From positions 1 through 35,111 of the forward strand of contig JAUIBM010000001.1 of assembly GCA_030428345.1 (NCBI GenBank): 35,111 bases of DNA, in the 5' to 3' direction. The stretch comes from Alphaproteobacteria bacterium. GTDB lineage: Bacteria; Pseudomonadota; Alphaproteobacteria; Rhizobiales; Rhizobiaceae. How positions within the stretch are numbered: position 1 is the stretch's first letter; each line of letters begins with the position of its first letter. The notes under the pieces are model-generated. The model made no database searches, was not told the origin of the DNA, and saw nothing but the letters and a program-made list of their open reading frames with translations. Positions 2,478 through 17,486 of the stretch are shown here, one piece after another. The translations under genes and the position numbers were made by a program.

Positions 2478-3308
2478 TCAGGCGGACACGGTGTTGGCGA
2501 CACCGTCTTTCCCCCCGGTCCGGCTGTCGGCAACGCCCGTGAGTTCTCGCGTTGCCGAACCGATTGACTGGAGCAGGCCTTCAAGCCGGCCTTCCCATTG
2601 CGGCAGCGCTGCGCGCAGATCCGGCGATGCGGGAAGGTCGCTAAGCGCGGTCATGACCAGCGCCGAACACAGATTGGATGGCAGGAAGCTCGCCGCCGAG
2701 CCCGCATTCAGCGCAGCGAGCGCGGCCAGCGTGTTGGCGCCCGTGCCGCTGATGACGACGGCCTCGACCGCGGATGCGTCGATCTTGCGGGCCGCCGCGC
2801 CGACATCGTCCGGCGTCAGTTCATAGGCGCGGAATTCGTCAGAGATCGAATGGGTCTGCACGACTTCCAGCCCGGCGTCGGCCCAATAGGCCTGCGCATG
2901 CGCGGTGAGTTCCTTGGGATAGGGCGAGACGAGCGCGATCCGCCGGGCGCCCATCGCGGTAAGCACGGCCAGGATCGCCAGGCTCGCGGTCACGACCGGC
3001 GCCTGCGCCTGCGCCGACAAGTCCCGGCACATGCGCGTGTCGCCGGATGCAAGCAGCTTGTAGGAGGAGCCGGTCATGGCGATCGACAGGGCGTCGAGCT
3101 TCAGCGAGCCGAAGGCCTTGATCGTCTCGCCATAGGCCTTCAGGTAGAGATCGTTGCGCTCATACAGCGTCGTGTTGGGAAACACGGGAAGGCGGGCATA
3201 GTGGCACGCGGCCGCGACCGGCAGCAGCAGGCGCATTTCCGGTTCGACGGCTGGGTTGGCCGGCGGGACGATCGTGCCGATGCGGCAGGCGGTGTGGATG
3301 TCAGCCAT
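2478..3308 (-). CDS. Asp/Glu racemase superfamily protein, arylmalonate-decarboxylase / maleate cis-trans isomerase-like
   Basis: The N-terminal motif RIGTIVPPANPAVEPE and the overall length of about 276 aa fit the AMDase/maleate-isomerase family. The chosen start is ATGGCTGAC at 3308, preceded by GGAGGG. The track start at 3377 would overlap the upstream gene by 77 nt. Confidence 0.75.
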   Translation of the reverse strand: MADIHTACRIGTIVPPANPAVEPEMRLLLPVAAACHYARLPVFPNTTLYERNDLYLKAYGETIKAFGSLKLDALSIAMTGSSYKLLASGDTRMCRDLSAQAQAPVVTASLAILAVLTAMGARRIALVSPYPKELTAHAQAYWADAGLEVVQTHSISDEFRAYELTPDDVGAAARKIDASAVEAVVISGTGANTLAALAALNAGSAASFLPSNLCSALVMTALSDLPASPDLRAALPQWEGRLEGLLQSIGSATRELTGVADSRTGGKDGVANTVSA

Positions 3309-4494
3309 TGCGCCCTCCATTGCCCACCATCGCCTCCGGCACGCCGGCCAGCATGTCGAGCATCGCCTGCTTGGCAAGGAATTCGCTCGCCGTCTCGGGC
3401 GACGCGCTGATGGCGGCGATGCGCTTCACGCGTTCGCTGCCCGTGCCGATATTCTCGTCGGTGCGCGGCAGGAGCTGCAGGCGCGTCACGCGCTCGCGCT
3501 CCCATGCGGCGCGGTCCAGATGCGTGATGTCGCCGCTCCGGGAAAAGGCGATCGCCGCCGCGGCATAGGCGAATGCGTCGTGCAGCCCGGCATTGAGGTT
3601 CATTCCGCCCTTGGTGTTGGTCAGGTGCAAGGCGTCTCCGGCGAGATAGACCCGCCCGACGCTTGCCGCCAGCGCCCGCCGCCGGCGGGCGGAGTAGACG
3701 TCGCGCGCCGCGACCTCCGGCAGGATCTGTTCGATCGCGAGAAGATTGGAAAGCCGCGAGACGATCCAGGCGTCGCTCATCGCCTCGCTCTCCGGAATGC
3801 CGGCGGGAACCCGCACGACGATACGCCAGCAATCATGCATTTCCAGCAGGCTGCAGGTATCCTCGCCCGCATGCAGATAGGCGATGCCCGAAAGGCCGGG
3901 CAGGTACTGGCGCATGTCGGCATCCGCATAGAGCCGCAGCGCCATCCCGGGATAGGGCTTCTCGACATAGCCGATCCGCACGGCTTCCCTGGCGGCCGAT
4001 TGCGCGCCGTCGCAGCCGAACAGCACCGCGCCGCGGTGCTCCTGGCCGTCCGCCGTCCTGGCGGTGACACCGGATTCGTCCTGGGTCAGCGAAGCCAGTT
4101 CCGCGCCGAACTCGAGCCGGCCGCCTTCCTGAACGAAAAGATCGCGCATCAGCGTCGTCAGTTCGCCCTGTTCGTAGTGCATGCGGTACGGATTGCGCAC
4201 GCGATCCTTGAGGAGCGAGAAGTCGAGCTGCGACAGCAATTCGCCATCGGGCGCGCGGTATTGCACGCAATCGATCCGCGTGCCCTTCGTCTGCATGGAC
4301 TCCAGCACGCCGCATGTTTCCAGCAGGTCCAGCGTCGAGGCGTGGAAGGTCGACGCCTTGGATTGCAGGTTCACCGTGTCGCGCTTTTCCAGCACCGTAA
4401 CCGCAATTCCGGCGCGCAGCAGCATCAGGGCCAGCGTCAGGCCAACCGGCCCCGCGCCTGTCACGATCATCTGCTGATTGTCTGTCTGGCTCAT
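3301..4494 (-). CDS. FAD-dependent aromatic-ring/heterocycle monooxygenase (PHBH fold, UbiH/MhpA-like)
   Basis: It has a GxGxxG motif (MIVTGAGPVGLTLAL), a GD motif (RVYLAGDALHLTNTKGGMNLNAGLHDA) and a DG-type motif (FGCDGAQSAAR). The start is placed at the ATG at 4494 (MSQTDNQQ), with AGGA 5 nt upstream. The track start at 4509 is a TTG. Confidence 0.85.
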   Translation of the reverse strand: MSQTDNQQMIVTGAGPVGLTLALMLLRAGIAVTVLEKRDTVNLQSKASTFHASTLDLLETCGVLESMQTKGTRIDCVQYRAPDGELLSQLDFSLLKDRVRNPYRMHYEQGELTTLMRDLFVQEGGRLEFGAELASLTQDESGVTARTADGQEHRGAVLFGCDGAQSAAREAVRIGYVEKPYPGMALRLYADADMRQYLPGLSGIAYLHAGEDTCSLLEMHDCWRIVVRVPAGIPESEAMSDAWIVSRLSNLLAIEQILPEVAARDVYSARRRRALAASVGRVYLAGDALHLTNTKGGMNLNAGLHDAFAYAAAAIAFSRSGDITHLDRAAWERERVTRLQLLPRTDENIGTGSERVKRIAAISASPETASEFLAKQAMLDMLAGVPEAMVGNGGRNG

Positions 4495-4521
4495 GCCTGT
4501 CCTGCTCAAAACGATGGCCTC

Positions 4522-4549
4522 ATGCTAGCGGCCGACATAAAAGTGTCAA
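4522..4549 (-). promoter_or_regulatory. Candidate sigma70-type promoter of the monooxygenase-isomerase-ABC operon
   Basis: On the minus strand the -35 is TTGACA (rc of 4544..4549). A 16-nt spacer follows, then the -10 TAGCAT (rc of 4522..4527). The -10 lies about 28 nt upstream of the ATG at 4494. The -35 is embedded in the palindrome AAGTGTCAACACTT. Confidence 0.4.
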
Positions 4550-4554
4550 CACTT
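4541..4554. promoter_or_regulatory. Candidate GntR-type operator, site 1 (6-2-6 perfect palindrome AAGTGT-CA-ACACTT)
   Basis: AAGTGTCAACACTT. The arms AAGTGT and ACACTT are exact reverse complements. It shares the TGTCAAC core with three other sites in the island's promoter regions. Confidence 0.5.
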
Positions 4555-4634
4555 GATTTGATCTGACTCGAAGAATCTCGCAAAAAGTCGGAATTTTCAG
4601 GCATCTTGGTACGGTATGGCTCGTGCTTTGGGCA

Positions 4635-4648
4635 TAGTGTCAACATTG
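4635..4648. promoter_or_regulatory. Candidate GntR-type operator, site 2
   Basis: TAGTGTCAACATTG, in the same orientation as site 1 with centres 94 bp apart. It lies in the non-coding gap between the isochorismatase-family gene and the monooxygenase gene. Confidence 0.4.
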
Positions 4649-4666
4649 TGTGCAATGTCCGGGCAG

Positions 4667-4698
4667 GGGCGGGGCTAGGCCCGCCCATCCGGGGCGGG
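4667..4698 (-). terminator. GC-rich alternative hairpins spanning the stop codon of the isochorismatase-family gene (possible terminator or processing structure)
   Basis: GGGCGGG (4667..4673), CCCGCCC (4680..4686) and GGGCGGG (4692..4698). The central arm can pair with either flank. There is no clear U-tract. Confidence 0.25.
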
Positions 4699-5400
4699 CA
4701 TTTGCAGGTTTTCCAGATAGGCCGCCACCTCGTCGGTCGGGATCACGTCGGCATATTTGCAGTTGAGATCGAAGAGGTTCATCGCATGGCTCGCCTCGAA
4801 GCGGTCGAAGGCGGTTTCCTCGGGGATGACGGTCTTGAAGTTGAAGGAATAGGCGTCGACCGCCGTCGCCCTCAGGCAGCCTGACGTGGTGCATCCGGTA
4901 AGGATCAGCGTGTCGACGTCGAGGAAGTTCAACTGGCTCATGAACAAGGTGCCGAAGAACGCCGAGGGCTTGCGCTTGCCGATCAGAGCGTCCTGGGGGC
5001 GCGGCGCCAGGGGAGAAACGGTCTGCGTGGCGTGGCTGCCCTCGATCGAGGTCTTCTCCGTGCCGCGGTGGTTCTTGCCGACCTGCACGCCGCTGTCGAT
5101 CATGTCGGGCCTGCGTTCCGACTGGGTGTAGAAGATCGGAATGTCCCTGGCCCTGGCGATGTGCATCAGCCGCTCGATGTGGGGGACGGCCTTCCAGCCC
5201 ACCTCGCCGCAATGGGTGCGGTACTGCTTCAGCCCTTCCTCATGGCTCTGGCCCGGCTCGTCGCCGCAGAAATTGTACTGCACGTCGATGATGAACAGGG
5301 CAGGGCGCTTTCCGAACCCGCCCCGCTTGCCGTAGCCGGCGAGCCGATAGATTTCCTTGTCCTTGTCGGTCAGGAACTTGTCCCAGATGCGTTCGCTCAT
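4675..5400 (-). CDS. Isochorismatase-family cysteine hydrolase (maleamate amidohydrolase / N-carbamoylsarcosine amidase-like half-amidase)
   Basis: The internal ATG at 5400 (MSERIWDKF) is preceded by AGGA. The product is 241 aa. Family triad candidates are D in LFIIDVQ, K in IGKRKPSAF and C in LTGCTTSGCLRAT. The upstream part of the track ORF (4675..5874) is Arg/Gly-rich junk that overlaps the next gene. Confidence 0.85.
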   Translation of the reverse strand: MSERIWDKFLTDKDKEIYRLAGYGKRGGFGKRPALFIIDVQYNFCGDEPGQSHEEGLKQYRTHCGEVGWKAVPHIERLMHIARARDIPIFYTQSERRPDMIDSGVQVGKNHRGTEKTSIEGSHATQTVSPLAPRPQDALIGKRKPSAFFGTLFMSQLNFLDVDTLILTGCTTSGCLRATAVDAYSFNFKTVIPEETAFDRFEASHAMNLFDLNCKYADVIPTDEVAAYLENLQMPAPDGRA

Positions 5401-5411
5401 GTGTGGTCCTT

Positions 5412-6770
5412 TCAGGCTGCGCGGTGCAGGTAGCGGCCGCTGGCGCCGATCCCGGGCGCGAGCGCGCCGTCCTCGACGAGCACCTCGCCGCGCAGGATCG
5501 TGTGGGTTATCGCGCCGCGAAAGCTCATGCCGTCGTAGGGCGAGTAGTCGGAATGGGAAGGATAGGCGGCGGCGTCGATCCGGGTCGTGCCGTCCGGGTC
5601 GACAATGGCGAAATCCGCGTCGAAGCCGGGCGCGATGCGGCCCTTGCCGCGCACCGAATAGAGATCGGCGACATTGCTCGACGTCGCGGCGGCGAGCGTT
5701 TCCAGCGGAATTCCGCGCTTGCGCCAGCCCTCTTCCAGCAGCACCGGCAGGATCTGGGCGATGCCCGGAAAGCCGGCCGTGGCCTGCCAGATATCGGGGC
5801 CCTTGGTCGAGCGCTTGCGCGGCACGTGGTCCGAGCCGATCGTGGAGATTTCGCCCGTGCGAACGCCTTCCCACAATCCGTCGATGTCGGACTGGCTGCG
5901 CAGCGGCGGGTTCACCTTGCCCAGATTACCGATCGCGCTGTCTCGGCTGAGCGACAGATAGTGGATGCAGGTCTCGACATGGATCGGCGCGCGGCCCGGA
6001 TGGCGCAGCTTGCGCACCAGATCGAGGCTTTCCACCGCCGACATGTGGACGATGTTGACCGGGCAGTTGGTCTTCTCGCCGAAATAGCACACCCGAAAGA
6101 CGTTCTCGGTCTCCAGGAAGCCGGGCGACTGTTCGTCCCAGACCCTGAGATCGTCGCGGCCGGCGGCCTTCAGCGGCTCGCGCAGCACCGGGATCACCTC
6201 GGTGTTCTCGCAATGCACGCCGACAACGCCATTGCGTATCTTCGCGCCGGCCTGCAGGGCGGCGAACAGCAGGCCGTCATCCACCTCGCCAAAACCTTTC
6301 GCCGCGCCCGTCGCGCCCTTGTACATCAGATAGACCTTGACGGAGGTGACGCCGAAGCGCTGCGACAGCTCGGCCAGTTCCTGCACGTGGCGGCGCGAGG
6401 TGACGCCGAAATGGAAGCCGAAATCGATCGCCGAACGAGCGAGCGCGGCGTCGCGCCAGGGGCCGGTCGCCGCGCCCAGATCGTCGCTGCGCCAGAAGCT
6501 GAACAGCCCGGTAACCCCGCCCAGAAGCGCGGTGCGGCTCTCCGTGTCCCAGTCGTTTTCCTTGTCGCCGAAGCCGATATGCGTATGCGGGTCGATCACC
6601 CCCGGCATGACCAGCCTGTCGGTGCAATCGATGATGCGCCGCGCCTCGGCCCGCTCTTCGGGCGCAAGGATGGCGGCGATGCGGCCGTTGCGGATGGCGA
6701 GCGAGCCGCGTCGCATGCCCTCGCCCGGAAAGACGATTTCGCCATTGTGGAGAACCAGATCGTAACTCAT
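5412..6770 (-). CDS. Cyclic amidohydrolase of the dihydropyrimidinase / hydantoinase / imidase family
   Basis: All metal-centre motifs can be seen: DPHTH, the carboxylated-Lys context VKVYLMYK, VHCEN, IVHMS and GSDH. The product is 452 aa. The start ATG overlaps the stop of the aconitase-like gene (ATGA at 6767..6770). Confidence 0.9.
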   Translation of the reverse strand: MSYDLVLHNGEIVFPGEGMRRGSLAIRNGRIAAILAPEERAEARRIIDCTDRLVMPGVIDPHTHIGFGDKENDWDTESRTALLGGVTGLFSFWRSDDLGAATGPWRDAALARSAIDFGFHFGVTSRRHVQELAELSQRFGVTSVKVYLMYKGATGAAKGFGEVDDGLLFAALQAGAKIRNGVVGVHCENTEVIPVLREPLKAAGRDDLRVWDEQSPGFLETENVFRVCYFGEKTNCPVNIVHMSAVESLDLVRKLRHPGRAPIHVETCIHYLSLSRDSAIGNLGKVNPPLRSQSDIDGLWEGVRTGEISTIGSDHVPRKRSTKGPDIWQATAGFPGIAQILPVLLEEGWRKRGIPLETLAAATSSNVADLYSVRGKGRIAPGFDADFAIVDPDGTTRIDAAAYPSHSDYSPYDGMSFRGAITHTILRGEVLVEDGALAPGIGASGRYLHRAA

Positions 6771-9463
6771 GCAGCAGCATCCAGCTTGTTCAACAGGGCG
6801 GCGAACATGCCGCCGGAAAGAAGAAGATCGCGCTCGGCCTCGCTCGCGATGTCGACACGGGCGCTGAAGCGGCGCGGCTCGCCCGCTTCGTCATGCGCCT
6901 CCACGCTTACGGCCTCTCCCGCCATGACGGCGGCGTGAAGGTTGCCAAATCGGAAGCGCTCGAAGCCGGTAAGGCCGAGCGTGGCGGCCGACTCGTCCTT
7001 GGCGAAGACCAGCGGCAGAATGCCGACGCCGATCAGGTTGGAGCGATGGATCCGCTCGAAGCTTTCCGCCAGTGCGGCGCGAACGCCGAGCAGCTTCGGC
7101 CCCTTCGCCGCCCAGTCGCGGCTGGAGCCCATGCCGTAATCGCGCCCGCCGAGCACGATCGCGGGCGCGCCCTGCCGCCTGAACGCCATCGCCGCCTCGT
7201 AGATCGCTACAGGCGGGGCATCGGGTGACAGGCGGGTGAAGCCGCCTTCGGTTCCCGGCGCGAGAAGGTTTTTCAGCCGCTGATTGGCGAAGGTGATCCG
7301 GGCCATGAATTCATGATTGCCGCGCCGCTGGGTCACGGCGTTGAAATCCTTCGGCTTGACGCCCTGTGCGACGAGATATTGCCCGGCCAGCGTGTCCGGC
7401 GAGATTTCCCCGCTGGGTGTGATGTGGTCGGTCGTCAGCGAGTCGCCGACCATCAGCAGGGTGCGGGCGTCCTCCAGACTGTCCGGCAGGGCGGGGCTGT
7501 CGAGGTCGAAGAACGGCGGCGGGCAGACATAGGTCGAGGCGGGATCCCATTGGAAGCGCCGGCCTGTCGGGGCCTCGAGCCGCCGCCACAATTCGGCGCC
7601 GTCGAACAGCCTTGCATAGCTTTTCTGGAACTGTTCGGGCTGCAGGCTCTCGCGCACAAGCTGTTCGAGCTCGGCCGGGTCGGGCCAGATGTCGCGCAGA
7701 TGAACCGGCTGGCCATCGCTGCCCGTCCCCAGCGGCTCTGCCTCGACATCGATGTCGATCCGCCCGGCAAGCGCGAAGGCTACCACCAGCGGCGGGGAAG
7801 CCAGAAAATTGGCGCGGCAGCTGCGATGGATCCGGCCCTCGAAATTGCGATTGCCCGAAAGGACCGCCGCCGCGACCAGATCGTGCTTGGAGATCGCCTC
7901 GGCCAGCTCCGGGCGGATCGGACCTGACTTGCCCGAGCAGGTCGTGCAGCCGAAGCCGACGATATGAAAGCCGAGCTGCTCCAGCGGGGCCAGAAGCCCG
8001 GCCTTCGCCAGGTAGTCCTCCACGAGGCGCGAACCCGGCGCCAGCGACGTCTTGACCCAGCCCGGCGTCCTGAGCCCGAGGCGGACCGCGTTGCGCGCCA
8101 GCAGGCCGGCGCCGAGCATCACGGCCGGGTTGGACGTGTTGGTGCAGGAGGTGATCGCCGCGACCATGATCGAGCCGTGGCGCAGGGGCTGCTCGAAGCC
8201 TTCGACCGCAACCGCCTTGTCGCTCTCGCCCTGCGGCACGCCGAAGCCGCCTTGCGCCACCGGGGTGCTCAGGCTTTCGCAGAAGACCGACTTGATGTCC
8301 GTCAGCGGAACACGGTCCTGTGGCCGGCGCGGACCCGCCAGGCACGGGGCGATGGCGCCGAGATCGATGGAGACGATCTCGGAATAGTCCGCCTCGACGC
8401 CATGGTCCTCGACATAGAGCCCCGCCGCGCGGGCATGGGCTTCCACCAGGGCTACATGCCCTGCGGGCCGGCCGGACTGGTGCAGATAGTCGATGGTGCG
8501 CGCATCGATTGCGAAATAGCCGATGGTGGCGCCATATTCCGGCGCCATGTTTGCGATCGTCGCCCGCTCGGGAACCGACAACCCGGCGACGCCCTCGCCG
8601 AAGAACTCCACGAAGTCGCCGACCACGCCGACCTTGCGTAGCCGCTCGGTAATGGTGAGGACCATGTCGGTGGTCGTCGATCCGGCCGGCAGCCTGCCGG
8701 TCAGGCGAACGCCGACGACGCGCGGAATGCGCACGACATGGCGCTGCCCGAGCGCCACCGCCTCGCCCTCTATGCCGCCCACCCCCCAGGCCAGCAGGCC
8801 AATGCCGTTCACCATCGGGGTGTGGCTGTCGCAGCCGATCACGAATTCGGGCGCGGCGATCGCGCCATGGCCGGGCAGGGTGATCCGCTCCACCAGCATG
8901 GCCAGCTTTTCCAGATGCACCTGGTGGATGATTCCCGCGCCGGGCGGCACGACCTGCAGCTTGGCGAAGGCCTGCTGCGCCCATTTGAAGAAGCTGTAGC
9001 GCTCGCCATTGCGCCGGTATTCTTCCGCGATGTTGCGTTCGCGCGCATCGGCGCGCCCGGCGACATCGACAATCAGCGAATGATCCACCACCAGCGCGAT
9101 CGGCACCCGCGGCTCGACGCTGTCGGCGCCTGCGCCCGAAGCATGCGCCGCGTCGCGCGCCGCCGCCAGATCCATCAGCACCGGCAATCCGCTGGAATCG
9201 GGCAGGATCAGGCGCGATACCATGAGCGGCGCGGAGAGCGGCGGCGTCTCGCCGGTCCATCCGGCGATCTGCGCGGCGATGTCTGCGGTGTCATGGCCGA
9301 GCAGGTCCTGCCGGCTGAGATTTTCCAGCACCACCTTTAGGCAGGACGGCAGGGGCCTGCTGCGTGCTGCGGTGAGGGCGTCCAGATCGATGCACGACAT
9401 GGCCGAGCCGTCCGGCAGCGTGAAGCCGCGAAGTGGGGATAGGGCTGGTCGGGTTGCGCGCAC
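6767..9463 (-). CDS. AcnA/IRP-type aconitase-family hydratase (paralog; substrate unknown)
   Basis: Motifs seen are LPSCLKVVLENL, VVDHSLIVD, GCDSHTPMVNGIGLLAWGVGGIEGEA, ITSCTNTSNP, GCTTCSGKSG, SGNRNFEGRIH and GMGSSRDWAAKG. The start is uncertain. The GTG at 9463 gives the same N-terminal spacing to the LPxS motif as the E. coli AcnA sequence I recall from memory. Alternatives are the ATG at 9400 and the TTG at 9523 (track start, but it coincides with a TTGACA -35-like hexamer). Confidence 0.88.
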   Translation of the reverse strand: MRATRPALSPLRGFTLPDGSAMSCIDLDALTAARSRPLPSCLKVVLENLSRQDLLGHDTADIAAQIAGWTGETPPLSAPLMVSRLILPDSSGLPVLMDLAAARDAAHASGAGADSVEPRVPIALVVDHSLIVDVAGRADARERNIAEEYRRNGERYSFFKWAQQAFAKLQVVPPGAGIIHQVHLEKLAMLVERITLPGHGAIAAPEFVIGCDSHTPMVNGIGLLAWGVGGIEGEAVALGQRHVVRIPRVVGVRLTGRLPAGSTTTDMVLTITERLRKVGVVGDFVEFFGEGVAGLSVPERATIANMAPEYGATIGYFAIDARTIDYLHQSGRPAGHVALVEAHARAAGLYVEDHGVEADYSEIVSIDLGAIAPCLAGPRRPQDRVPLTDIKSVFCESLSTPVAQGGFGVPQGESDKAVAVEGFEQPLRHGSIMVAAITSCTNTSNPAVMLGAGLLARNAVRLGLRTPGWVKTSLAPGSRLVEDYLAKAGLLAPLEQLGFHIVGFGCTTCSGKSGPIRPELAEAISKHDLVAAAVLSGNRNFEGRIHRSCRANFLASPPLVVAFALAGRIDIDVEAEPLGTGSDGQPVHLRDIWPDPAELEQLVRESLQPEQFQKSYARLFDGAELWRRLEAPTGRRFQWDPASTYVCPPPFFDLDSPALPDSLEDARTLLMVGDSLTTDHITPSGEISPDTLAGQYLVAQGVKPKDFNAVTQRRGNHEFMARITFANQRLKNLLAPGTEGGFTRLSPDAPPVAIYEAAMAFRRQGAPAIVLGGRDYGMGSSRDWAAKGPKLLGVRAALAESFERIHRSNLIGVGILPLVFAKDESAATLGLTGFERFRFGNLHAAVMAGEAVSVEAHDEAGEPRRFSARVDIASEAERDLLLSGGMFAALLNKLDAAA

Positions 9464-9495
9464 GTGCCTTCGGTCGCCTCCATTTTGCGGGGCGG

Positions 9496-9523
9496 AGATT
9501 ACATCGAAGCGCCAAACTGTCAA
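9496..9523 (-). promoter_or_regulatory. Candidate promoter of the aconitase-amidohydrolase-amidase operon
   Basis: On the minus strand: TTGACA (rc of 9518..9523), a 16-nt spacer, then TAATCT (rc of 9496..9501). The -35 again lies inside a TGTCAAC-core motif. Confidence 0.35.
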
Positions 9524-9528
9524 CTCTT
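9515..9528. promoter_or_regulatory. Candidate GntR-type operator, site 3
   Basis: AACTGTCAACTCTT in the gntR/aconitase divergent region. It shares the TGTCAAC(A/T)(C/T)T core with sites 1, 2 and 4. Confidence 0.45.
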
Positions 9529-9542
9529 TGGGTGGTTCGCGC

Positions 9543-9571
9543 TTGCCTCAGGCTGTGAACTCGGGTATTTA
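9543..9571 (+). promoter_or_regulatory. Candidate gntR promoter
   Basis: TTGCCT (9543..9548), a 17-nt spacer, then TATTTA (9566..9571). This would place operator site 4 downstream of the transcription start. Confidence 0.3.
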
Positions 9572-9597
9572 GCTGAAAATCGGACGCAGCCTGATCA

Positions 9598-9609
9598 AAG
9601 TGTTGACAG
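9598..9609. promoter_or_regulatory. Candidate GntR-type operator, site 4 (inverted relative to site 3)
   Basis: AAGTGTTGACAG. With its flanks, its reverse complement reads CTGTCAACACTTTG, against CTGTCAACTCTTTG at site 3 (13 of 14 identical). It ends 5 nt before the gntR ATG. Confidence 0.45.
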
Positions 9610-9613
9610 GAAG

Positions 9614-10291
9614 ATGGATTTGCAAGCACACGATCAAGCCCCTCTGGTGAACCAGATCTTCGACAGGATATTCGAATTGTTGCTCTCGGGCGAGATACCG
9701 CTCGGCGGCACCTTGAACGAGGCGACGCTGGCTGCGCGCTTCTCGGTGAGCCGCGGTCCTGTGCGCGAAGCGATCAAGATGTTCCAGGGGCGCGGCCTCG
9801 TCGTCAAGGAGCCCTATCTCAAGGCGCATGTGGTGGAATTGTCGGTTTCCGACATGATCCAGATCTTCCAGCTGCGCGAGGCCGTGGAATGCATGTCCAT
9901 CCGCCTCGCCACCCGGAACATGAGCGACGCGGAAATCGACCATCTGCTGTCCGAATTCACGATCGCCCGCACGGGCGAGAACATCGACGTCCTGGACGTT
10001 CACGTCCGCATCGCCGAAGGCTGCGGCAATGAGCGCATCCGCGCCTTGCTCTGCGACGAGCTTTACCATCTGCTGCGGCTCTACAGGGCCCGCTCCGGCG
10101 GCAAGCCGGGCCGGCGCAAGGACGCTTATTCCGAACACTGGCAGATCTTGCGGGCGATGAAGGCGCGCGACGCCGATCTGGCTGAATCATTGATGCGCGC
10201 ACACATCATGCGCGCCACCCGGTCCCTGGAAGAGGTCCTGGCCAACACGACGGCGGACCAGCAGGGCAGCGCAAACAGGGAGGCGGGATGA
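9614..10291 (+). CDS. GntR-family (FadR/FCD-type) transcriptional regulator
   Basis: The wHTH region reads LNEATLAARFSVSRGPVREAIKMFQGRGLVV, followed by an all-helical C-terminal domain of about 150 aa. The ATG at 9614 is preceded by AGGAAG. The stop overlaps the next start (ATGA). Confidence 0.9.
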   Translation: MDLQAHDQAPLVNQIFDRIFELLLSGEIPLGGTLNEATLAARFSVSRGPVREAIKMFQGRGLVVKEPYLKAHVVELSVSDMIQIFQLREAVECMSIRLATRNMSDAEIDHLLSEFTIARTGENIDVLDVHVRIAEGCGNERIRALLCDELYHLLRLYRARSGGKPGRRKDAYSEHWQILRAMKARDADLAESLMRAHIMRATRSLEEVLANTTADQQGSANREAG

Positions 10292-11214
10292 CCATACAGA
10301 CCCAGATTGCCATACGGCCGACGCAACGCATGCGGGAACTCATCGCGGGCGCCGATCTCATCGTCTCTCCCGGAGTCTATGACGGCTACAGCGTGCGCCT
10401 TGTCGAGAAGATGGGCTTCAAGACGGCCTGCACCACCGGGGCGGGGCTTTCCAACTCGCGCCTGGGCGTGCCCGATATCGGCGTCATGGGCCTCAGCGAC
10501 AATGTCGAAGCCTGCCGCGTGATGGCGCGATCGGTGTCGATCCCGGTCATGGCCGACGCCGATACCGGCTATGGCAATCCGGCGAACATGCTGCACACCG
10601 TTCGCATGTTCGAGGATGCGGGCGTTGCCGGGATCAACATCGAGGATCAGGTCAGCCCCAAGCGCTGCGGCCACATGCAGGGCAAGGACGTGGTCGACAT
10701 GCGGGAAATGGCCCGCAAGATCGAGGCGGCCTGCGACGCGCGCAAGGACGACGACTTCGTCATTCTGGCGCGCACCGACGCGATCGCGATCGAGGGTCTT
10801 GAGGGCGCGATACGCCGCGCGCAGCTCTACGCCAAGGCCGGCGCCGACCTCATTTTCGCCGACGCCATCGGCGGCGAGGACCAGATCAAGGCGCTGGTGG
10901 ACGCCGTGCCGGTTCCCGTGTCGGTCAACATGGGCTTCGGCATCCGCAACCGCCCGACCACGCCGCTCATTCCCCTGACGCGGCTCGCCGAAATCGGCGT
11001 CCGGCGCGTCACCTTGCCCAGATTGCTGCCGGCCGCCGCGATCCTGGCGATGGAAAACGCCCTGTCCATCCTCAAGCAGTCGATCCTGACCGGCGAGATC
11101 GTCCACCGGCCCGACCTTCTGGCCGGCATCGACGACATCTGGGAATTGATGGGACAGCCCGAATTCCGCCTGCAGGAAGCCCGCTACAACAATCTGGAAG
11201 ACCTCGACCTGTAA
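10288..11214 (+). CDS. Isocitrate lyase / PEP mutase superfamily lyase (2-methylisocitrate lyase / 2,3-dimethylmalate lyase-like)
   Basis: Motifs seen are SPGVYDGYS, DADTGYG, GINIEDQ and the diagnostic KRCGH loop (VSPKRCGHMQGK), plus ILARTDA. The product is 308 aa. Confidence 0.88.
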   Translation: MTIQTQIAIRPTQRMRELIAGADLIVSPGVYDGYSVRLVEKMGFKTACTTGAGLSNSRLGVPDIGVMGLSDNVEACRVMARSVSIPVMADADTGYGNPANMLHTVRMFEDAGVAGINIEDQVSPKRCGHMQGKDVVDMREMARKIEAACDARKDDDFVILARTDAIAIEGLEGAIRRAQLYAKAGADLIFADAIGGEDQIKALVDAVPVPVSVNMGFGIRNRPTTPLIPLTRLAEIGVRRVTLPRLLPAAAILAMENALSILKQSILTGEIVHRPDLLAGIDDIWELMGQPEFRLQEARYNNLEDLDL

Positions 11215-11366
11215 CCGCCCTTGCGGCGGGTTCGGCGTGCTGTCCCAGCCATTTCCGGGATCGCGGTGGATAATCCCGATGCGGCGTGCGTTCGGTGCTG
11301 TAACGGCCGCGCGCGCCGTCGTATCGTCCCCGCGGTCCGGCATGGCCGGCGAAAACGGACAGGGAC

Positions 11367-12584
11367 ATGAGCCAGAGCGCACCCAGGATGATCGTTGCCC
11401 GGCGCGAGGTCGACACGACGCCGCGCCGGCTCGCCGGATTTCTCAGCCTGGCGGATTTCGAGCGCGCGGCGAAGCGCCGGCTGCCGCGACAGATCTACGG
11501 CTATTACGCCAACGCCGCCGAAACCGGGCAATCGCTGACCGGCAATCTGGCCGCCTTCCGCAATTACGATCTGGTGCCGCGCGTCCTGGCGGATGTTTCG
11601 ACGCGCTCGGCGAGCGCCAGCCTGTTCGGCAAGCGCTATTCCGCGCCCTTCGGCATTGCGCCGATGGGCCTTTCCGGGCTTGCGACCTTCGACGGCGAGA
11701 TTGTGCTGGCGCGCGCGGCGAAGGCGGCGAACATTCCCTCCATCGTCAGCGCCACATCGCTGACCCCGCTTGAGCGCGTTGCCTCGCAGGGCGGCGCGCG
11801 CTGGTTCCAGGCCTATCTTCCGGGCGAGGACGACCGCATCGAGGCCATGGTCGATCGCGTCGCGGCGGCCGGCTACGACACCTTCGTGCTGACGGCCGAC
11901 GTGCCGGTAGCCGCCAATGCCGAGAACCATGTCCGCGTCGGTTTCAGTTCACCGCTGCGCCCGTCGCTGCGGCTGGCCTGGGACGGGCTGATGCGGCCGC
12001 GCTGGCTGGCCGACACCTGGTTCAGGACCCTGCTCAAGAAGGGTGTTCCGCATTTCGAGAACATGGACGCCTTTCGCGGGCCGCCGATCCTGGCGCGCAA
12101 TGTCGTGCGGGCGCTGGGCGCGCGCGACCAGCTTGCCTGGCGTCATCTGGCGCTGATCCGCAAGCGCTGGTCCGGCCGGCTGGTGGTCAAGGGCGTCCTG
12201 TCGGCGGCGGACGCGCTTCTGGCGCGCGAGCATGGCGCGGACGGGGTCATCGTCTCCAACCACGGCGGGCGGCAGCTGGACGGCGCGCCGCCCTCGCTTT
12301 CCGCGCTGCCCGCGATCGCCGAGGTCGCGGGCGACATGACGGTGATGCTGGATGGCGGGGTCCGGCGCGGCTCCGACGTGTTCAAGGCGCTGGCGCTCGG
12401 CGCGGACTTCGTCTTCGTCGGCCGGCCGTTCCTCTATGCCGCCGCCATCGGCGGGGAAGCGGGCGTCGCGCGCGCGATCGCCCTTCTTTCCTCCGAGATC
12501 AACCGCAACATGGCGCTGCTGGGCGTCACCCGCATCGAGGACATTGGCGGCGAGCACATCGAGCGCTCGCAGTTTCCGCGGTGA
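11367..12584 (+). CDS. FMN-dependent alpha-hydroxy-acid dehydrogenase/oxidase (LldD / glycolate oxidase / mandelate dehydrogenase family)
   Basis: Family motifs are present: PFGIAPMG, VVKGV, IVSNHGGRQLDG, DGGVRRGSDVFKALALGA. The product is 405 aa. Confidence 0.9.
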   Translation: MSQSAPRMIVARREVDTTPRRLAGFLSLADFERAAKRRLPRQIYGYYANAAETGQSLTGNLAAFRNYDLVPRVLADVSTRSASASLFGKRYSAPFGIAPMGLSGLATFDGEIVLARAAKAANIPSIVSATSLTPLERVASQGGARWFQAYLPGEDDRIEAMVDRVAAAGYDTFVLTADVPVAANAENHVRVGFSSPLRPSLRLAWDGLMRPRWLADTWFRTLLKKGVPHFENMDAFRGPPILARNVVRALGARDQLAWRHLALIRKRWSGRLVVKGVLSAADALLAREHGADGVIVSNHGGRQLDGAPPSLSALPAIAEVAGDMTVMLDGGVRRGSDVFKALALGADFVFVGRPFLYAAAIGGEAGVARAIALLSSEINRNMALLGVTRIEDIGGEHIERSQFPR

Positions 12585-12617: not shown

Positions 12618-13811
12618 TCAGGTGACGGCGGAGCGGGCCATGTATCGCGCGTCGTCCCACAATCTTTCACGCATGATCCGCTCCAGGATGTGCGCGGCCT
12701 CCAGCACGTCGCTCTCGCGCAGATAGAGCGGCGTGAAGCCGAACCGCATGATGTCGGGCGCGCGGAAATCGCCGATCACGCCATGCGCGATCAGCGCCTG
12801 CATCGCGGCATAGCCATGCTCGAACCGGAACGAGACCTGGCTGCCGCGCCGGGCCGGATCGCGCGGGCTGGCGAGCGCCAGTGCGGGGCATCTCCTTTCC
12901 ACCTGCTCGATGAAAAGCTGCGACAATTCGATCGACTTGCGCCGCACATCGGCCAGATCGACCTCGTCCCACACCTCGAGCGCCGCTTCCAGCGCGATCA
13001 TGCCCAGGATCGGCGGGGTGCCGACCCGCATGCGCTCTATGCCGGGAGCCGGGCGGTACTGCGTCTCGAAGCTGAACGGCGCCTCGTGGCCGAACCAGCC
13101 GGCGAGCGAGGGCTCTGCATGTTCGGCATGCTCCGGGGAGACATGGATGAATGCCGGCGCGCCGGGACCGCCATTGAGATATTTATAGGTGCAGCCGACG
13201 GCGAAATCGGCCTTCGCGCCGGCAAGGTCGACCGGCAGCGCTCCTGCCGAATGGGCGAGGTCCCAGATCGTCAGCGTCCCGGCGCGGTGCGCCTTTTCGG
13301 TGATCGCCGCCATGTCATGCAGGCGTCCGGTGCGGTAGTCGACTTCGGTCAGCATCACGACCGCGGCCGCCTCGTCGATCGCCGCCTCCACCGCTTCGGG
13401 CTCGACGATGCGCAGTTCCAGTCCCTTGCCCAGCAGCCCGACCAGGCCCTGCGCCATGTAGAGATCGGTCGGGAAATTGCCGTTGTCGGAAAGGATGACC
13501 TTGCGGTCCGGGCGCAGCGCCAGCGCGGCGGAAAGGGCTTGGAACACCTTGATCGACAGCGTGTCGCCCATGACCACCGATCCGGCCGGCGCGCCGATCA
13601 GGCGGGCGATCCTGTCGCCCAGCTGGCGCGGCTTGTCGACCCAGCCGGCGCTGTTCCACGCGCGGATGAGTTGCTGGCCCCAATCCTTCTGCATGGTCTG
13701 CGCCACGGCCTGCACCGCCGATTTCGGCAGCGGCCCGAGGGAATTGCCGTCGAGATAGATCACGTCCGCCGGCAGGTCGAAAAAGGCGCGTGTCCTTGCG
13801 AAATCGGTCAT
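12618..13811 (-). CDS. kynU: Kynureninase (PLP-dependent)
   Basis: IYLDGNSLGP is present at the N-terminus. The PLP-lysine context is FAVGCTYKYLNGGPGAPAF, and DLAHSAG is also present. The product is 397 aa. GGGGAA precedes the ATG at 13811. Confidence 0.92.
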   Translation of the reverse strand: MTDFARTRAFFDLPADVIYLDGNSLGPLPKSAVQAVAQTMQKDWGQQLIRAWNSAGWVDKPRQLGDRIARLIGAPAGSVVMGDTLSIKVFQALSAALALRPDRKVILSDNGNFPTDLYMAQGLVGLLGKGLELRIVEPEAVEAAIDEAAAVVMLTEVDYRTGRLHDMAAITEKAHRAGTLTIWDLAHSAGALPVDLAGAKADFAVGCTYKYLNGGPGAPAFIHVSPEHAEHAEPSLAGWFGHEAPFSFETQYRPAPGIERMRVGTPPILGMIALEAALEVWDEVDLADVRRKSIELSQLFIEQVERRCPALALASPRDPARRGSQVSFRFEHGYAAMQALIAHGVIGDFRAPDIMRFGFTPLYLRESDVLEAAHILERIMRERLWDDARYMARSAVT

Positions 13812-13910: not shown

Positions 13911-14879
13911 ATGCAGCATGCAAGACTCCCCAATCTCATCCTTGCCGCAACCCTGTTGGCGATGAGCGGCGGCATCGCCCACGCCCAGTCCGGCAAGGTC
14001 GCCATCGCCTTGTTCGGCCCGCACCCCTCGCTGCAGCAGGCCGTCGACGGCTTCAAGGAGGAACTGGCGTCGGAAGGGGTCGAGGCGACCTATGACGAGG
14101 GCAATGTGAATTTCGACCGTTCGCTGGTCCCCCAGCTGCTCAACAAGCTGAATGCCGGCGACCCCGACCTCATGCTGACGATCACCACGCCCATGACCCA
14201 GTCGGCCAAGCAGATCCTCGCCTCGCGCGACTATCCGATCGTGTTTGCGCCGGTCACCGATCCGGTCAAGGCCGGCTTGGTCCCCTCCTGGGATCACGGC
14301 GCGCCGCTGATGGTCGGCGCATCGAACATCCCCGATTTCGAGGCGACGGTCGACTTCATCGAGAAACTGCTCCCGGACTCCACGCGGCTCGGCATTCTCT
14401 ACAATCCGGGCGACGACAGCGACACCTCCTTCGTCGAAAGGCTGGAGCCGGTCGCCAAGGCCAAGGGCATGGAGCTGGTCAAGATCGGCGTTGACAATGT
14501 CAACGACATCGCGACGCGGGTGCGCTCGGCCAAGGGCCGCGTCGATGCGCTGTTCGTCCCGGCGTCGAGCCTGCTGCAGCCGGCCAGCGCCGCGATCGCC
14601 TCGGCGGCGAACCCGATCGGCCTCCCCGTCTTCGGCAGCAACACCCAGACGGTCGACAATCACCAGATGCTGGGCGCGCTGTCGGTCGACTTCCACCGTG
14701 TCGGCGTCAATGCCGGCAAGATCGCCGCGCGTCTGCTGAAGGGCGAAAAGGCCGAGGACATCGCCATCTCCGTGCCGTCCCCCGAAGACCATGTCGCCCG
14801 CATCAGCGCGCAGCGGCTCAAGGCGCTGGGCCTCACTCTGCCAGACAGCCTGAAAGACTGCGATTGTGTCGCCGAATGA
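13911..14879 (+). CDS. ABC transporter substrate-binding protein, ABC_sub_bind family (putative tryptophan/tyrosine-type uptake system)
   Basis: The signal peptide is LILAATLLAMSGGIAHA. The mature part (KVAIALFGPHPSLQQAVDGFKEEL...ILYNPGDDSDTS...) looks like the binding component of the three-gene systems annotated as putative Trp/Tyr transport. AGGAG lies 9 nt upstream of the ATG. Confidence 0.8.
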   Translation: MQHARLPNLILAATLLAMSGGIAHAQSGKVAIALFGPHPSLQQAVDGFKEELASEGVEATYDEGNVNFDRSLVPQLLNKLNAGDPDLMLTITTPMTQSAKQILASRDYPIVFAPVTDPVKAGLVPSWDHGAPLMVGASNIPDFEATVDFIEKLLPDSTRLGILYNPGDDSDTSFVERLEPVAKAKGMELVKIGVDNVNDIATRVRSAKGRVDALFVPASSLLQPASAAIASAANPIGLPVFGSNTQTVDNHQMLGALSVDFHRVGVNAGKIAARLLKGEKAEDIAISVPSPEDHVARISAQRLKALGLTLPDSLKDCDCVAE

Positions 14880-15720
14880 CGGCGATGCGCCGGCTGTCGA
14901 ACTGGATGGCCTGAAACTCGCTTTTCATGCCGGTACGCCCGATCAACGCATTGCGCTCGACAATCTGAGCCTTGCGTTGAACCGGGGCGATTTCGCGGTC
15001 GTCATCGGCTCGAACGGCGCTGGCAAGAGCACCCTGCTCAATGTCATTTCCGGCGCGCTGCGCCCGGATGCCGGGTCGATCGCCGTGGATGGGGTGGATG
15101 TCACGCGGGCTCCGGTCCACAGGCGGGCGGCCATGATCGGGCGGGTCTTCCAGGACCCGATGCTCGGCACCGCTCCCGCACTCTCGATCGAGGAAAACCT
15201 CGCCCTCGCCTCGATGCGGGGCCGGCGCAGGGGTCTGGGACTGGCGCTCGACCATGCCGCGCGCAGCCGCTTCGCGGCGCTGCTGGAGCCGTTTGGCCTT
15301 GGTCTGGAAAAGCGCATGGCCGCGCCGGCCAGCCTGCTCTCGGGCGGGCAGCGCCAGGTTCTCGCCCTGGTGATGGCCTCGCTGGTGCGACCCAGGGTGC
15401 TGTTGCTCGACGAGCACACCGCCGCGCTCGATCCCGGCACCGCCGCGCTGGTGATGCAGGCGACGCAGCGCATCGTCGCCGAGGGCGGCCTGACGACCCT
15501 TATGATCACGCACAACATGGCCCAGGCGGTCGAATACGGGAACCGGCTGCTCGCCATGGATGCCGGCCGCATCAAGCTCGACATTGCCGGCGCCGAAAAG
15601 ACTTCTCTCTCCATTGACGATCTGGTGCGCCGCTTCGCGGGCGACGCCGATCATGTCCTGCTGCGGTCCCGCGCCAACATGGCGGCAGGCCCGGCGGATG
15701 CAACCGGCGCGAAAGGGTGA
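14866..15720 (+). CDS. ABC transporter ATP-binding protein
   Basis: Walker A is GSNGAGKST, the signature is LSGGQRQ and Walker B is LLLDEHTAALD. The GTG start overlaps the end of the binding-protein gene by 14 nt. Confidence 0.9.
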   Translation: MSPNDGDAPAVELDGLKLAFHAGTPDQRIALDNLSLALNRGDFAVVIGSNGAGKSTLLNVISGALRPDAGSIAVDGVDVTRAPVHRRAAMIGRVFQDPMLGTAPALSIEENLALASMRGRRRGLGLALDHAARSRFAALLEPFGLGLEKRMAAPASLLSGGQRQVLALVMASLVRPRVLLLDEHTAALDPGTAALVMQATQRIVAEGGLTTLMITHNMAQAVEYGNRLLAMDAGRIKLDIAGAEKTSLSIDDLVRRFAGDADHVLLRSRANMAAGPADATGAKG

Positions 15721-15726
15721 GGCGGG

Positions 15727-16629
15727 ATGATGGACGCGCTTGTCCTTTATTGGAACCTTGTGCCCGTTACCCTGGTGCAGGGGCTGGCCTATGCGCTGGT
15801 CGCGCTGGCGGTGATGATACCCTTTCGCATCCTGTCGGTTCCTGATCTCTCCAGCGAGGGGGTCTTCCCGCTTGGCGCTTGCGTCGCCGCGGCGCTGATC
15901 GCCGCCGGCGTCTCGCCCATCGCCGCGACGCTGGCCGCCATCGTCGCCGGATTTTTCGCGGGCGTGACCACCGCGCTCATCCATTTGAAGTTCCGCGTGC
16001 ACTCCCTGCTCGCTGGCATTCTCACCATCACCATGCTGTGGAGCGTCAATCTGCGCGTTCTCGGCAAGCCGAACCAGCCGATCTTCGGCCAGCCGAACCT
16101 GTTCGACTGGATCAGCCCGGCAATCCTGATGAACCTCAATTTGCAGATCCTCGTCTTCGCCGTCCTGCTGGCGGTGCTGGTCGGCGCCTTGTGGTGGGGA
16201 CTGCAGACTCATGCCGGCCTGGCGCTGAGGGGCGTTGGCGCCAATCCGAGCCTTGCGCCCGCGCTCGGCGTCAATGTCGTGCTCTACACCTCCGCCGGCC
16301 TGGGACTGGCCAGTTGCTTCAGCGCGCTGGCTGGCGCCTTGCTGGCGCAGCAGCAGGGCTATGGCGATGTCGGCATGGGCGTCGGCATGCTGGTCAACGG
16401 TCTTGCGTCGGTCATCATCGGCGAGTCGATCACCGGCCGGCGCACCCTGCTGCGGCAGGTCCTCGCCCCGGTCGTCGGCTCGATCGCCTATTACCAACTC
16501 GCCTCGCTGGCGCTCTCGATCGGCCTGGAGCCTTCCGATCTGAAGATCGCCACCGGGGGCTTCGTCCTCCTCACCATTGGCTGGCCCGTCCTTCTGGGAC
16601 GCAAGACGCCGGCCTCGCGCGCATTTTGA
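15727..16629 (+). CDS. ABC transporter permease (branched-chain/BMP-like fold, partner of the two preceding genes)
   Basis: 300 aa, hydrophobic throughout with about 8 predicted TM segments. It starts 7 nt after the ATPase stop. Confidence 0.88.
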   Translation: MMDALVLYWNLVPVTLVQGLAYALVALAVMIPFRILSVPDLSSEGVFPLGACVAAALIAAGVSPIAATLAAIVAGFFAGVTTALIHLKFRVHSLLAGILTITMLWSVNLRVLGKPNQPIFGQPNLFDWISPAILMNLNLQILVFAVLLAVLVGALWWGLQTHAGLALRGVGANPSLAPALGVNVVLYTSAGLGLASCFSALAGALLAQQQGYGDVGMGVGMLVNGLASVIIGESITGRRTLLRQVLAPVVGSIAYYQLASLALSIGLEPSDLKIATGGFVLLTIGWPVLLGRKTPASRAF

Positions 16630-17463: not shown

Positions 17464-17486
17464 ACGAGCGGGGGCAGGGCGCGGCC

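Follow-up and report, generated by a model that had tools for sequence, protein, structure and literature searches.

A GntR-controlled gene cluster of alphaproteobacteria proposed to channel a carboxylated N-heterocycle through hydrolytic ring opening to a specialised aconitase and lyase

The stretch of DNA analysed here, called the window, comprises 35,111 nucleotides (positions 1 to 35,111, forward strand) of contig JAUIBM010000001.1 from a Rhizobiaceae alphaproteobacterium (GCA_030428345.1), and its left part carries a gene cluster that we propose to be a GntR-controlled catabolic regulon. Real genes were told from overlapping open reading frames (ORFs) by third-position GC bias, families were assigned with Pfam and NCBIfam models, and gene starts were adjusted by alignment to orthologues. 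From the left, the minus strand encodes an ATP-binding cassette (ABC) transporter permease of an accessory uptake operon (163-1341; BPD_transp_1), a PotD-like periplasmic solute-binding protein (1401-2465; SBP_bac_8, 1.4e-37), a protein of the arylmalonate decarboxylase (AMDase) and Asp/Glu racemase superfamily (2478-3308; Pfam Amdase, 5e-9; the ORF reaches 3377, with the likely ATG at 3308), a group-A monooxygenase of the aromatic or heteroaromatic hydroxylase type dependent on flavin adenine dinucleotide (FAD) (3301-4509; FAD_binding_3, 1.6e-44), a cysteine amidohydrolase of the isochorismatase family, hereafter the amidase (4675-5400; Isochorismatase, 2.5e-25), a binuclear-metal cyclic amidohydrolase of the allantoinase, hydantoinase, dihydropyrimidinase and dihydroorotase group (5412-6770; metal ligands and family models), and a paralogue of AcnA-type aconitase (6767-9463; TIGR01341, 1058.8 bits against a cut-off of 945). 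On the plus strand follow a GntR-family regulator with an FCD domain (9614-10291; start set by orthologue alignment), a lyase of the isocitrate lyase (ICL)/phosphoenolpyruvate (PEP) mutase superfamily (10288-11214; PEP_mutase, 2e-53) and a 2-hydroxyacid dehydrogenase dependent on flavin mononucleotide (FMN) (11367-12584; family models), and next to these a kynureninase gene lies on the minus strand (12618-13811; TIGR01814, 292 bits against 246). Start and stop overlap by 4 nucleotides at the aconitase/amidohydrolase and GntR/lyase junctions. Among the cluster enzymes the aconitase alone reaches a curated NCBIfam equivalog cut-off, the remaining ones scoring below all specific models.

All genes listed in an earlier note on this DNA are present and are backed by third-position GC bias and family models. 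Its assignments of a full-length AcnA-type aconitase, a cyclic amidohydrolase with intact metal ligands, an isochorismatase-family amidase and a KRCGH-motif ICL-family lyase agree with the AcnA models that the first enzyme passes, the six invariant ligands of the second, the Asp-Lys-Cys motifs of the third and the PEP_mutase match of the fourth. The description of the cluster as GntR-flanked needs correction, as the regulator lies within it, and the Pot-type importer placed at its left end exists in an operon truncated by the window's left edge, which in relatives extends with a second permease, an ATPase and an aldehyde dehydrogenase.

Aligned homologues of the amidohydrolase were used to scan a genome collection, and the 58 loci obtained were scored by tblastn and ORF clustering. 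L numbers denote single loci where these are cited; co-occurrence counts refer to the 56 loci that hold a close amidohydrolase homologue. The amidase gene was found in 55 of the 56, the aconitase gene in 53 and the lyase gene in 49, and in most loci the genes for lyase and GntR are divergent from those for aconitase, amidohydrolase and amidase. This five-gene core occurs in about 50 alphaproteobacterial genomes from many genera of Rhodobacterales and Hyphomicrobiales, and the core layout is also found on an Antarctobacter and a Shinella plasmid and in Yersinia intermedia and Falsochrobactrum. Shinella, Yersinia and Falsochrobactrum have one same-strand array of aconitase, amidohydrolase, amidase, aldehyde dehydrogenase, monooxygenase, AMDase-like protein, ABC transporter and aminotransferase genes. 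The nearest named relatives of the window are Oricola and Ahrensia, at about 84% protein identity, and the most conserved protein of the cluster is the amidase (74-89% identity). The arrangement is far beyond chance, and the co-conservation anticipated for the gene set is thus confirmed for the five-gene core. The FMN-dependent dehydrogenase, which had been counted as a member, and kynureninase were not found in any related locus, and the operator-like motif described below precedes neither gene; both were accordingly ruled out as cluster members.

The FAD monooxygenase, the AMDase-like protein and the ABC importer make up one of two alternative accessory modules. The monooxygenase and AMDase-like genes co-occur in about 21 loci (about 40%), the latter always paired with the former; counted with the set in the earlier note, they are accessory. 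In these loci they are linked to the ABC importer and an aldehyde dehydrogenase, and often to a class-III aminotransferase or a UTRA-type GntR regulator. The PotD-like solute-binding protein gene accompanies the cluster in 16 loci, where a permease orthologue (57-82% identity) comes next to it; an NMT1/SsuA-type binding protein replaces it in Yersinia, Shinella and Falsochrobactrum. The other module, present in 27 loci, is marked by an NTF2/SnoaL-like gene between the aconitase and amidohydrolase genes, together with a fumarate-reductase-like flavoprotein, a short-chain dehydrogenase/reductase (SDR) and TctABC; the flavoprotein matches TcuA weakly (154 bits against a cut-off of 369). No locus carries both the NTF2-like and the AMDase-like gene (27 and 21 loci; hypergeometric 3e-9, with kinship among the loci ignored). 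A RidA-family gene directly follows the amidase gene in nine Bosea-type loci. In several loci (L020, L027 and L037-L039) the lyase gene is followed, on its left, by two PLP-dependent decarboxylases of the Orn/DAP/Arg type and a methyltransferase, joined in L037-L039 by an alpha/beta hydrolase; this neighbourhood looks like a third, biosynthetic type. A luciferase-family monooxygenase resembling SfnG/SsuD occurs in Bosea (L061 666-2350), with the operator-like motif upstream and an FMN reductase alongside, and likewise in Antarctobacter (L001 3867-4907). In Bosea it hints at a sulfonate-type or other extra feeder substrate. A Rut-type pyrimidine pathway was rejected, as this monooxygenase is SfnG/SsuD-like and reaches only 90 bits with the RutA model, whose cut-off is 498.

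The core and both accessory modules share an operator-like motif, AAAGTGTTGACA, found in the form AAAG(T/A)GTTGACA as two inverted copies in the aconitase-GntR gap; the motif, AAAGTGTTGACACTTT, is the putative target of the GntR protein. In the window this divergent control region spans 9518-9608 and holds AAGAGTTGACA at 9518-9528 (minus strand) and AAGTGTTGACA at 9598-9608 (plus strand), both copies including a TTGACA -35 hexamer. Another AAGTGTTGACA, at 4544-4554, overlaps a promoter-like site in front of the monooxygenase operon (4522-4554, minus strand; TTGACA, a 16-nucleotide spacer and TAGCAT), which was the only such site in a promoter and terminator scan that yielded no informative terminator. 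The pair in the GntR-aconitase gap, about 78 bp apart, is kept across genera, Yersinia included, and AAGTGTTGACA occurs 152 times in 1.15 Mb against 2-8 times in shuffled sequence. The motif also recurs in the amidase-monooxygenase gap (9 loci), in the flavoprotein-SDR gap (17 loci) and upstream of Tct genes and luciferase-like monooxygenase genes. This distribution argues for a single regulon made up of the core plus either module, with the GntR/FCD protein, encoded divergently from the aconitase in most loci, as its presumed repressor.

The aconitase is about 46% identical to the AcnA proteins of E. coli and Paracoccus, which are 62.5% identical to each other. It keeps the Fe-S cysteines and, in an alignment to IRP1, the DSHT, NRNFEGR, RRGN and SSRDW motifs, and it scores 718 bits with the AcnD model (cut-off 1420). 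Two canonical motifs present in both E. coli and Paracoccus AcnA, QDFTGVP and C-x-x-C-I-G-N-S-G, are changed to PDSSGLP and C..C.GKSG. QDFTGVP is identical in E. coli AcnA, Paracoccus AcnA, the AcnA of a Rhodococcus plasmid and human IRP1, and we take its Gln to be the substrate-binding Gln72 of mitochondrial aconitase, for which the literature searched held no documentation. All 54 aligned family members carry the replacements Q89P, F91S, T92S and N507K (numbered as in E. coli AcnA), and the aconitases of Yersinia, Shinella and Falsochrobactrum bear the same PDSSGLP/GKSG signature. We propose, from these substitutions, that the enzyme is a specialised paralogue with a remodelled substrate pocket, probably a hydratase for a substituted aconitate-like polycarboxylate. 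Other aconitase genes were seen on two plasmids: that of Rhodococcus opacus carries a separate module (L064 498-7080) of a citrate/H+ symporter, an AcnA with canonical motifs, an ICL/PEP-mutase lyase, GntR and a PrpD-family protein, and on that of Shinella a second acnA, accompanied by a PrpD-family gene and pcaC, adjoins the main cluster (L066 20648-24604).

The lyase retains the KRCGH motif and resembles PrpB, but it belongs to a distinct subfamily: it falls below the cut-offs of both PrpB models (244 against 354 bits for TIGR02317 and 209 against 353 for NF008455), has T.GA for SGGG and F.DA for F.EA among the substrate residues conserved in PrpB (SGGG, F-x-E-A and N-x-T-E-F-G), and contains an inserted loop, NMGFGxRxRPTTP, with two invariant Arg. 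Its nearest relatives are 2-methylisocitrate lyases, and AcnA enzymes can hydrate 2-methyl-cis-aconitate; in Hydrogenophaga, moreover, a canonical PrpB follows the amidohydrolase and amidase. One might therefore see in the aconitase and lyase a fragment of the methylcitrate cycle of propionate catabolism that happens to lie beside unrelated amidases. We hold this to be extremely improbable, given a lyase that scores under the PrpB cut-offs and differs at conserved PrpB positions and an aconitase whose stop overlaps the amidohydrolase start and which is co-conserved with it in 53 of 56 loci. The earlier note had named prpC or prpF nearby as the sign of such a cycle; none of prpC (citrate-synthase-like), prpD, prpF and acnD occurs among the ORFs of the window or among the genes that recur in the 58 loci. 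The cluster shares with the 2-methylcitrate cycle an AcnA hydratase and a lyase nearest to 2-methylisocitrate lyase, and the partners of the amidohydrolase and amidase elsewhere include PrpD-family, PrpF-like and PrpB proteins. It differs in the absence of methylcitrate synthase, in a lyase and aconitase that form separate subfamilies with changed conserved residues, and in a tricarboxylate that would come from ring hydrolysis instead of condensation with propionyl-CoA.

The amidohydrolase ligands H62, H64, K145, H186, H242 and D314 are invariant in 18 homologues, and a basic motif after the catalytic Asp, SDHxPRKRxTK, is common to alpha- and beta-proteobacterial members. The enzyme fits no named specificity class, scoring 265 bits against a cut-off of 358 for allantoinase, 252 against 393 for dihydropyrimidinase, 227 against 650 for ErtD and 226 against 482 for dihydroorotase; its nearest structures and families are allantoinase, L-hydantoinase and dihydropyrimidinase. 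The amidase has the Asp, Lys and Cys motifs (IIDVQ, GKRKPSAF and TSGCLRAT), and its nearest solved structures are N-carbamoylsarcosine amidases (26st and 1nba), followed by other isochorismatase-family hydrolases. We propose that the amidohydrolase is a ring-opening imidase and the amidase a half-amide (or N-carbamoyl) hydrolase that would release ammonia.

The same relatives suggest the main rival, in which a carboxylated cyclic ureide would be opened in the manner of a hydantoinase or dihydropyrimidinase and the N-carbamoyl amidase would then give CO2, ammonia and an amino- or enamino-polycarboxylate, with the AMDase-like protein acting as an epimerase akin to hydantoin racemase and the aconitase and lyase processing the skeleton after deamination. 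It draws, besides the allantoinase, L-hydantoinase, dihydropyrimidinase and N-carbamoylsarcosine amidase likenesses, on the membership of the AMDase-like protein in the Asp/Glu/hydantoin racemase superfamily, on the RidA-family gene of the nine Bosea-type loci and on PyrD/PyrK-like genes in an Oscillospiraceae cluster. Yet neither a deaminase nor an ammonia-lyase is part of the five-gene core, aconitase does not act on an amino-polycarboxylate and would be left without a substrate, RidA is limited to one genus, and the racemase-type cysteines are absent from the AMDase-like protein. We regard the ureide route as unlikely.

The amidohydrolase and amidase recur as a pair, at 36-44% identity, in Oscillospiraceae and on plasmids of Hydrogenophaga and Variovorax. 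In the Oscillospiraceae cluster (L059 7111-20384; also L054) the pair is flanked on one side by a LarA-type (nickel-pincer) isomerase and a GntP transporter, and on the other by a YbhJ-type aconitase-family hydratase, CitF, a PrpF-like isomerase, CitD, a CitE-like protein and the PyrK/PyrD-like proteins; the opposite strand further upstream encodes another allantoinase-like protein and an M20 amidohydrolase. On the Hydrogenophaga plasmid the pair lies with a CobW-type GTPase, the canonical PrpB and TctC proteins, and its neighbours on the Variovorax plasmid are two proteins of the PrpD family and a flavoprotein that shares 50% identity with the alphaproteobacterial one. The theme common to these settings, a neighbourhood of aconitate, citrate and methylcitrate family enzymes, supports the view that the product of the pair would enter such enzymes; other homologues stand in unrelated contexts, so the link to tricarboxylate enzymes is not universal. 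A GTPase of the CobW/COG0523 type (metallochaperone family) adjoins the pair in Yersinia, Hydrogenophaga and Variovorax (L067 12115-13188; L072 8973-10004; L073 8938-9987), but not in the window.

The AMDase-like protein is distantly and weakly related to maleate isomerases (E = 2e-7). Those enzymes rely on a catalytic cysteine pair (Cys76 and Cys194 in the enzyme of Nocardia farcinica), and arylmalonate decarboxylase has its catalytic Cys188 opposite a dioxyanion hole. Leu and Thr stand at the two isomerase positions, the Thr of an invariant GTG at the decarboxylase position, and the decarboxylase model NF052327 gives 39 bits against a cut-off of 225. The family invariants include AxTGxSY, GTG and SNLC, the last containing the sole invariant Cys, and the Thr/Ser-rich AxTGxSY segment resembles the oxyanion-hole side. 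The protein can therefore be ruled out both as a canonical maleate isomerase and as an arylmalonate decarboxylase; the family named in the earlier note stands, and the canonical role implied by it does not. The monooxygenase reaches no NCBIfam equivalog cut-off, and its nearest solved structures are PnpA, rifampin monooxygenase and HspB.

The combination of an FAD hydroxylase with an amidase of the isochorismatase family and a member of the maleate isomerase superfamily recalls the nicotinate/picolinate maleamate pathways (NicC, NicX, NicD, NicF and NicE), and a variant with NicC-, NicF- and NicE-like enzymes and a dioxygenase encoded elsewhere would account for these three. We consider such a variant very unlikely: the AMDase-like protein has neither isomerase cysteine, the hydroxylase and AMDase-like protein are missing from more than half of the loci, in contrast to the aconitase (53/56) and lyase (49/56), and a pathway ending in fumarate needs no aconitase and no lyase. 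As the earlier note had remarked of the cluster, there is no ring-cleavage dioxygenase; cupin or extradiol dioxygenases and a deformylase were sought and found neither in the window nor among the recurrent neighbours of related loci. The cluster thus differs from the nic/pic systems in lacking dioxygenase and deformylase, in an isomerase-like protein devoid of catalytic cysteines and in the added aconitase and lyase. A route from vitamin B6 (pyridoxamine or 4-pyridoxate) was discarded, since the C2 methyl blocks imide formation and MHPCO, an enzyme with a solved structure, is not among the structures retrieved as relatives of the monooxygenase.

What was observed directly is the gene content and its synteny, an operator-like motif common to the operons, and changes at active sites that are specific to the families. 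In our judgement it is somewhat probable that the cluster is a GntR-controlled catabolic regulon for an N-heterocycle with carboxyl or carboxyalkyl substituents, in which hydrolytic opening would feed the aconitase and then the lyase. The most economical reading of the five-gene core would have four steps. The amidohydrolase would open the ring of a cyclic imide, or of a compound closely related to it through a -CO-NH-CO- ring, and so form a half-amide; the amidase would free the nitrogen as ammonia, the remainder being an unsaturated acid with three or four carboxylates, like aconitate or 2-methylaconitate in type; the specialised AcnA paralogue would hydrate this acid to a 2-hydroxy acid; and the specialised PrpB-like lyase would split the latter into a 2-oxo acid such as pyruvate or 2-oxoglutarate and a di-acid such as succinate or glutarate. 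The accessory modules would import related precursors and turn them into the imide, one feeder consisting of aminotransferase, aldehyde dehydrogenase, FAD hydroxylase and AMDase-like protein and the other of SDR, flavoprotein and NTF2-like protein. In the window the ABC system would import the substrate, the FAD monooxygenase would oxygenate the ring and so make it hydrolysable, and the AMDase-like protein might then isomerise, tautomerise or decarboxylate the product, a place that the NTF2-like protein would take elsewhere. The earlier scheme of imide, half-amide, hydration and cleavage fits the core and agrees with the position of the pair beside tricarboxylate enzymes in other phyla; for its optional cis/trans step the AMDase-like protein cannot serve as a canonical maleate isomerase.

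Several points weigh against this interpretation. Every chemical step and the identity of the substrate are inferred, and the roles given to the monooxygenase, AMDase-like and NTF2-like proteins are guesses; that the changed residues of the aconitase and lyase line their pockets is a sequence-level reading. The amidohydrolase and amidase are equally compatible with opening of a cyclic ureide followed by N-carbamoyl hydrolysis; structurally they come closest to allantoinase, hydantoinase and N-carbamoylsarcosine amidase, and the RidA-family gene after the amidase in Bosea hints at an enamine or imine product. The Oscillospiraceae and beta-proteobacterial homologues, at 36-44% identity, may act on other substrates. 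Finally, as a -35 hexamer lies within the operator-like motif, some of the enrichment may be due to promoters instead of binding by the regulator.

Two ring options fit the proposed chemistry, five-membered carboxyalkyl-maleimides or -succinimides and six-membered rings of the citrazinate type. In the six-membered version, citrazinate (2,6-dihydroxyisonicotinate) or 2,6-dioxopiperidine-4-carboxylate derived from isonicotinate-type pyridines would be hydrolysed to a half-amide of trans-aconitate or tricarballylate, and an AMDase-, NTF2- or PrpF-like isomerase and/or the TcuA-like flavoprotein would yield cis-aconitate. The chemistry works: opening of glutaconimide-4-carboxylate gives the E (trans) isomer, which would explain the need for an isomerase, and the mutually exclusive AMDase-like and NTF2-like genes (21 and 27 loci), the PrpF-like isomerase of the Oscillospiraceae cluster, the weak TcuA match of the flavoprotein and the TctABC tricarboxylate-type transporters linked to the cluster would all find a place in it. 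Mycobacterium sp. INA1 reportedly degrades isonicotinate by way of citrazinate and propane-1,2,3-tricarboxylate, which we counted in favour of this version. Plain aconitate, however, would need neither a remodelled, dedicated aconitase nor a non-canonical lyase, no molybdenum hydroxylase was linked to the cluster in any locus scanned, isonicotinate-type compounds are not known as common marine metabolites, and the linked aminotransferase and aldehyde dehydrogenase are left unaccounted for. We think the six-membered version quite unlikely.

For the proposed imide pathway our leading substrate guess is a carboxyalkyl-maleimide or a porphobilinogen-type pyrrole, and it is a tentative, rather doubtful suggestion that the regulon is a complete mineralisation route for tetrapyrrole-derived monopyrroles. 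Candidates would be aminomethyl-pyrroles of the porphobilinogen type and carboxyalkyl-maleimides or -succinimides such as hematinic acid, these imides being formed by oxidation of heme, chlorophyll, bilins or coproporphyrin. In this scheme, aminotransferase and aldehyde dehydrogenase would turn the aminomethyl group into a carboxyl group, the FAD monooxygenase with the AMDase-like protein would convert the pyrrole to a maleimide, and the amidohydrolase and amidase would free ammonia; the new aconitase subfamily would hydrate the substituted maleate, and the new lyase would give 2-oxoglutarate and succinate, or pyruvate and glutarate. A maleimide derived from porphobilinogen would lead to a tetracarboxylate that, once hydrated, could be cleaved to 2-oxoglutarate and succinate. 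The extra basic residues (the aconitase Lys and the two lyase Arg) and the smaller residues in the aconitase motif are circumstantial signs in favour of this reading, and the basic residues would fit a tetracarboxylate. Interconversion of maleimide and succinimide forms could fall to the flavoprotein resembling fumarate reductase or to an enzyme of the PyrDK kind. A bona fide hemC (hydroxymethylbilane synthase) lies beside a HemL-like class-III aminotransferase gene on the Shinella plasmid (L066 3318-5598) and in a Phreatobacteraceae metagenome-assembled genome (L047 5825-7695), two unrelated versions of the cluster whose HemC proteins score 333 and 298 bits on TIGR00212 (cut-off 164). These genes lend circumstantial support to a tetrapyrrole substrate, which is still speculation.

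A full-text literature search returned no description of the gene set as a pathway. The statement in the earlier note that it matches no named pathway has accordingly been upheld: no published assignment was found in the literature searched, and the set fails the prp and nic/pic tests. The proposed logic resembles that of the last steps of nicotinate fermentation in Eubacterium barkeri, in which an aconitase-family dimethylmaleate hydratase feeds an ICL-family 2,3-dimethylmalate lyase. With that system (enamidase, DmdAB and Dml) the cluster would share a ring opener of the amidohydrolase superfamily, an aconitase-family hydratase acting on a substituted maleate and an ICL/PEP-mutase lyase whose catalytic loop contains Cys. 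In the cluster the hydratase is monomeric and of the full-length AcnA type, whereas that of E. barkeri is a LeuCD-like heterodimer; the cluster further lacks the B12 mutase, methylitaconate isomerase and molybdenum hydroxylase, has an extra cysteine amidase and occurs in aerobic alphaproteobacterial hosts.

Conversion of an imide to a half-amide and then to acid and ammonia is the proposed point of likeness to the cyclic-imide metabolism of Blastobacter sp. and to the nicotinate route of Aspergillus nidulans. The latter employs the HxnM imidase and the HxnN amidase (PMC9304392). Flavin monooxygenases precede the two hydrolyses in A. nidulans, as is proposed for the cluster. The imidases of the Blastobacter and A. 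nidulans systems belong to other protein families, and the fungal route ends in products of the 2-hydroxyglutarate type. The imidase candidate of the cluster, by contrast, is of the binuclear allantoinase/hydantoinase type, its amidase is of the isochorismatase type, and the product would be handed on to the aconitase and then the lyase. In Pseudomonas putida, histamine is broken down through an aminotransferase, an aldehyde dehydrogenase, an FAD-dependent imidazoleacetate monooxygenase and ring hydrolases. Fuller versions of the cluster share with it the aminotransferase, aldehyde dehydrogenase, FAD monooxygenase and the logic of hydrolytic opening, but the lower part consists of aconitase and lyase and does not lead through formiminoaspartate and aspartate, and the proteins are not orthologous. 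A histamine or hydantoin-acetate route was rejected, as it fits six enzymes and leaves the aconitase and lyase with no role.

We rate the cluster as a new pathway assembled from known enzyme families, with two new enzyme subfamilies. If this is true, an undescribed catabolic pathway is widespread in marine and soil alphaproteobacteria and on plasmids and extends to Yersinia intermedia, with a new subfamily of AcnA-type aconitases (PDSSGLP, C..C.GKSG) and a new branch of ICL/PEP-mutase lyases. It would also correct the automatic labels 'aconitate hydratase AcnA', with its tricarboxylic acid cycle gene ontology term, and 'dihydroorotase'. To our knowledge, no bacterial route has been described for the monopyrroles in which heme and chlorophyll end, and a tetrapyrrole-derived pyrrole or imide as substrate would provide a testable route for them.

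To the right of the kynureninase gene lie an ABC_sub_bind-type transporter (13911-16629), an aspartate-dehydrogenase-like gene (16654-17463), a BD-FAE/alpha-beta hydrolase gene (17460-18422) and a MarR regulator (18429-18935), and together with kynureninase these could form a unit related to tryptophan, kynurenine or NAD. An ORF at 19472-20989 fuses caspase (Peptidase_C14) and peptidoglycan-binding domains and is preceded by an ORF of 134 amino acids that has no family match. At 27666-29642, where the window is richest in GC (about 0.70-0.74), a 658-amino-acid ORF with coding-type third-position GC bias and no Pfam match overlaps other long ORFs and is a candidate gene.

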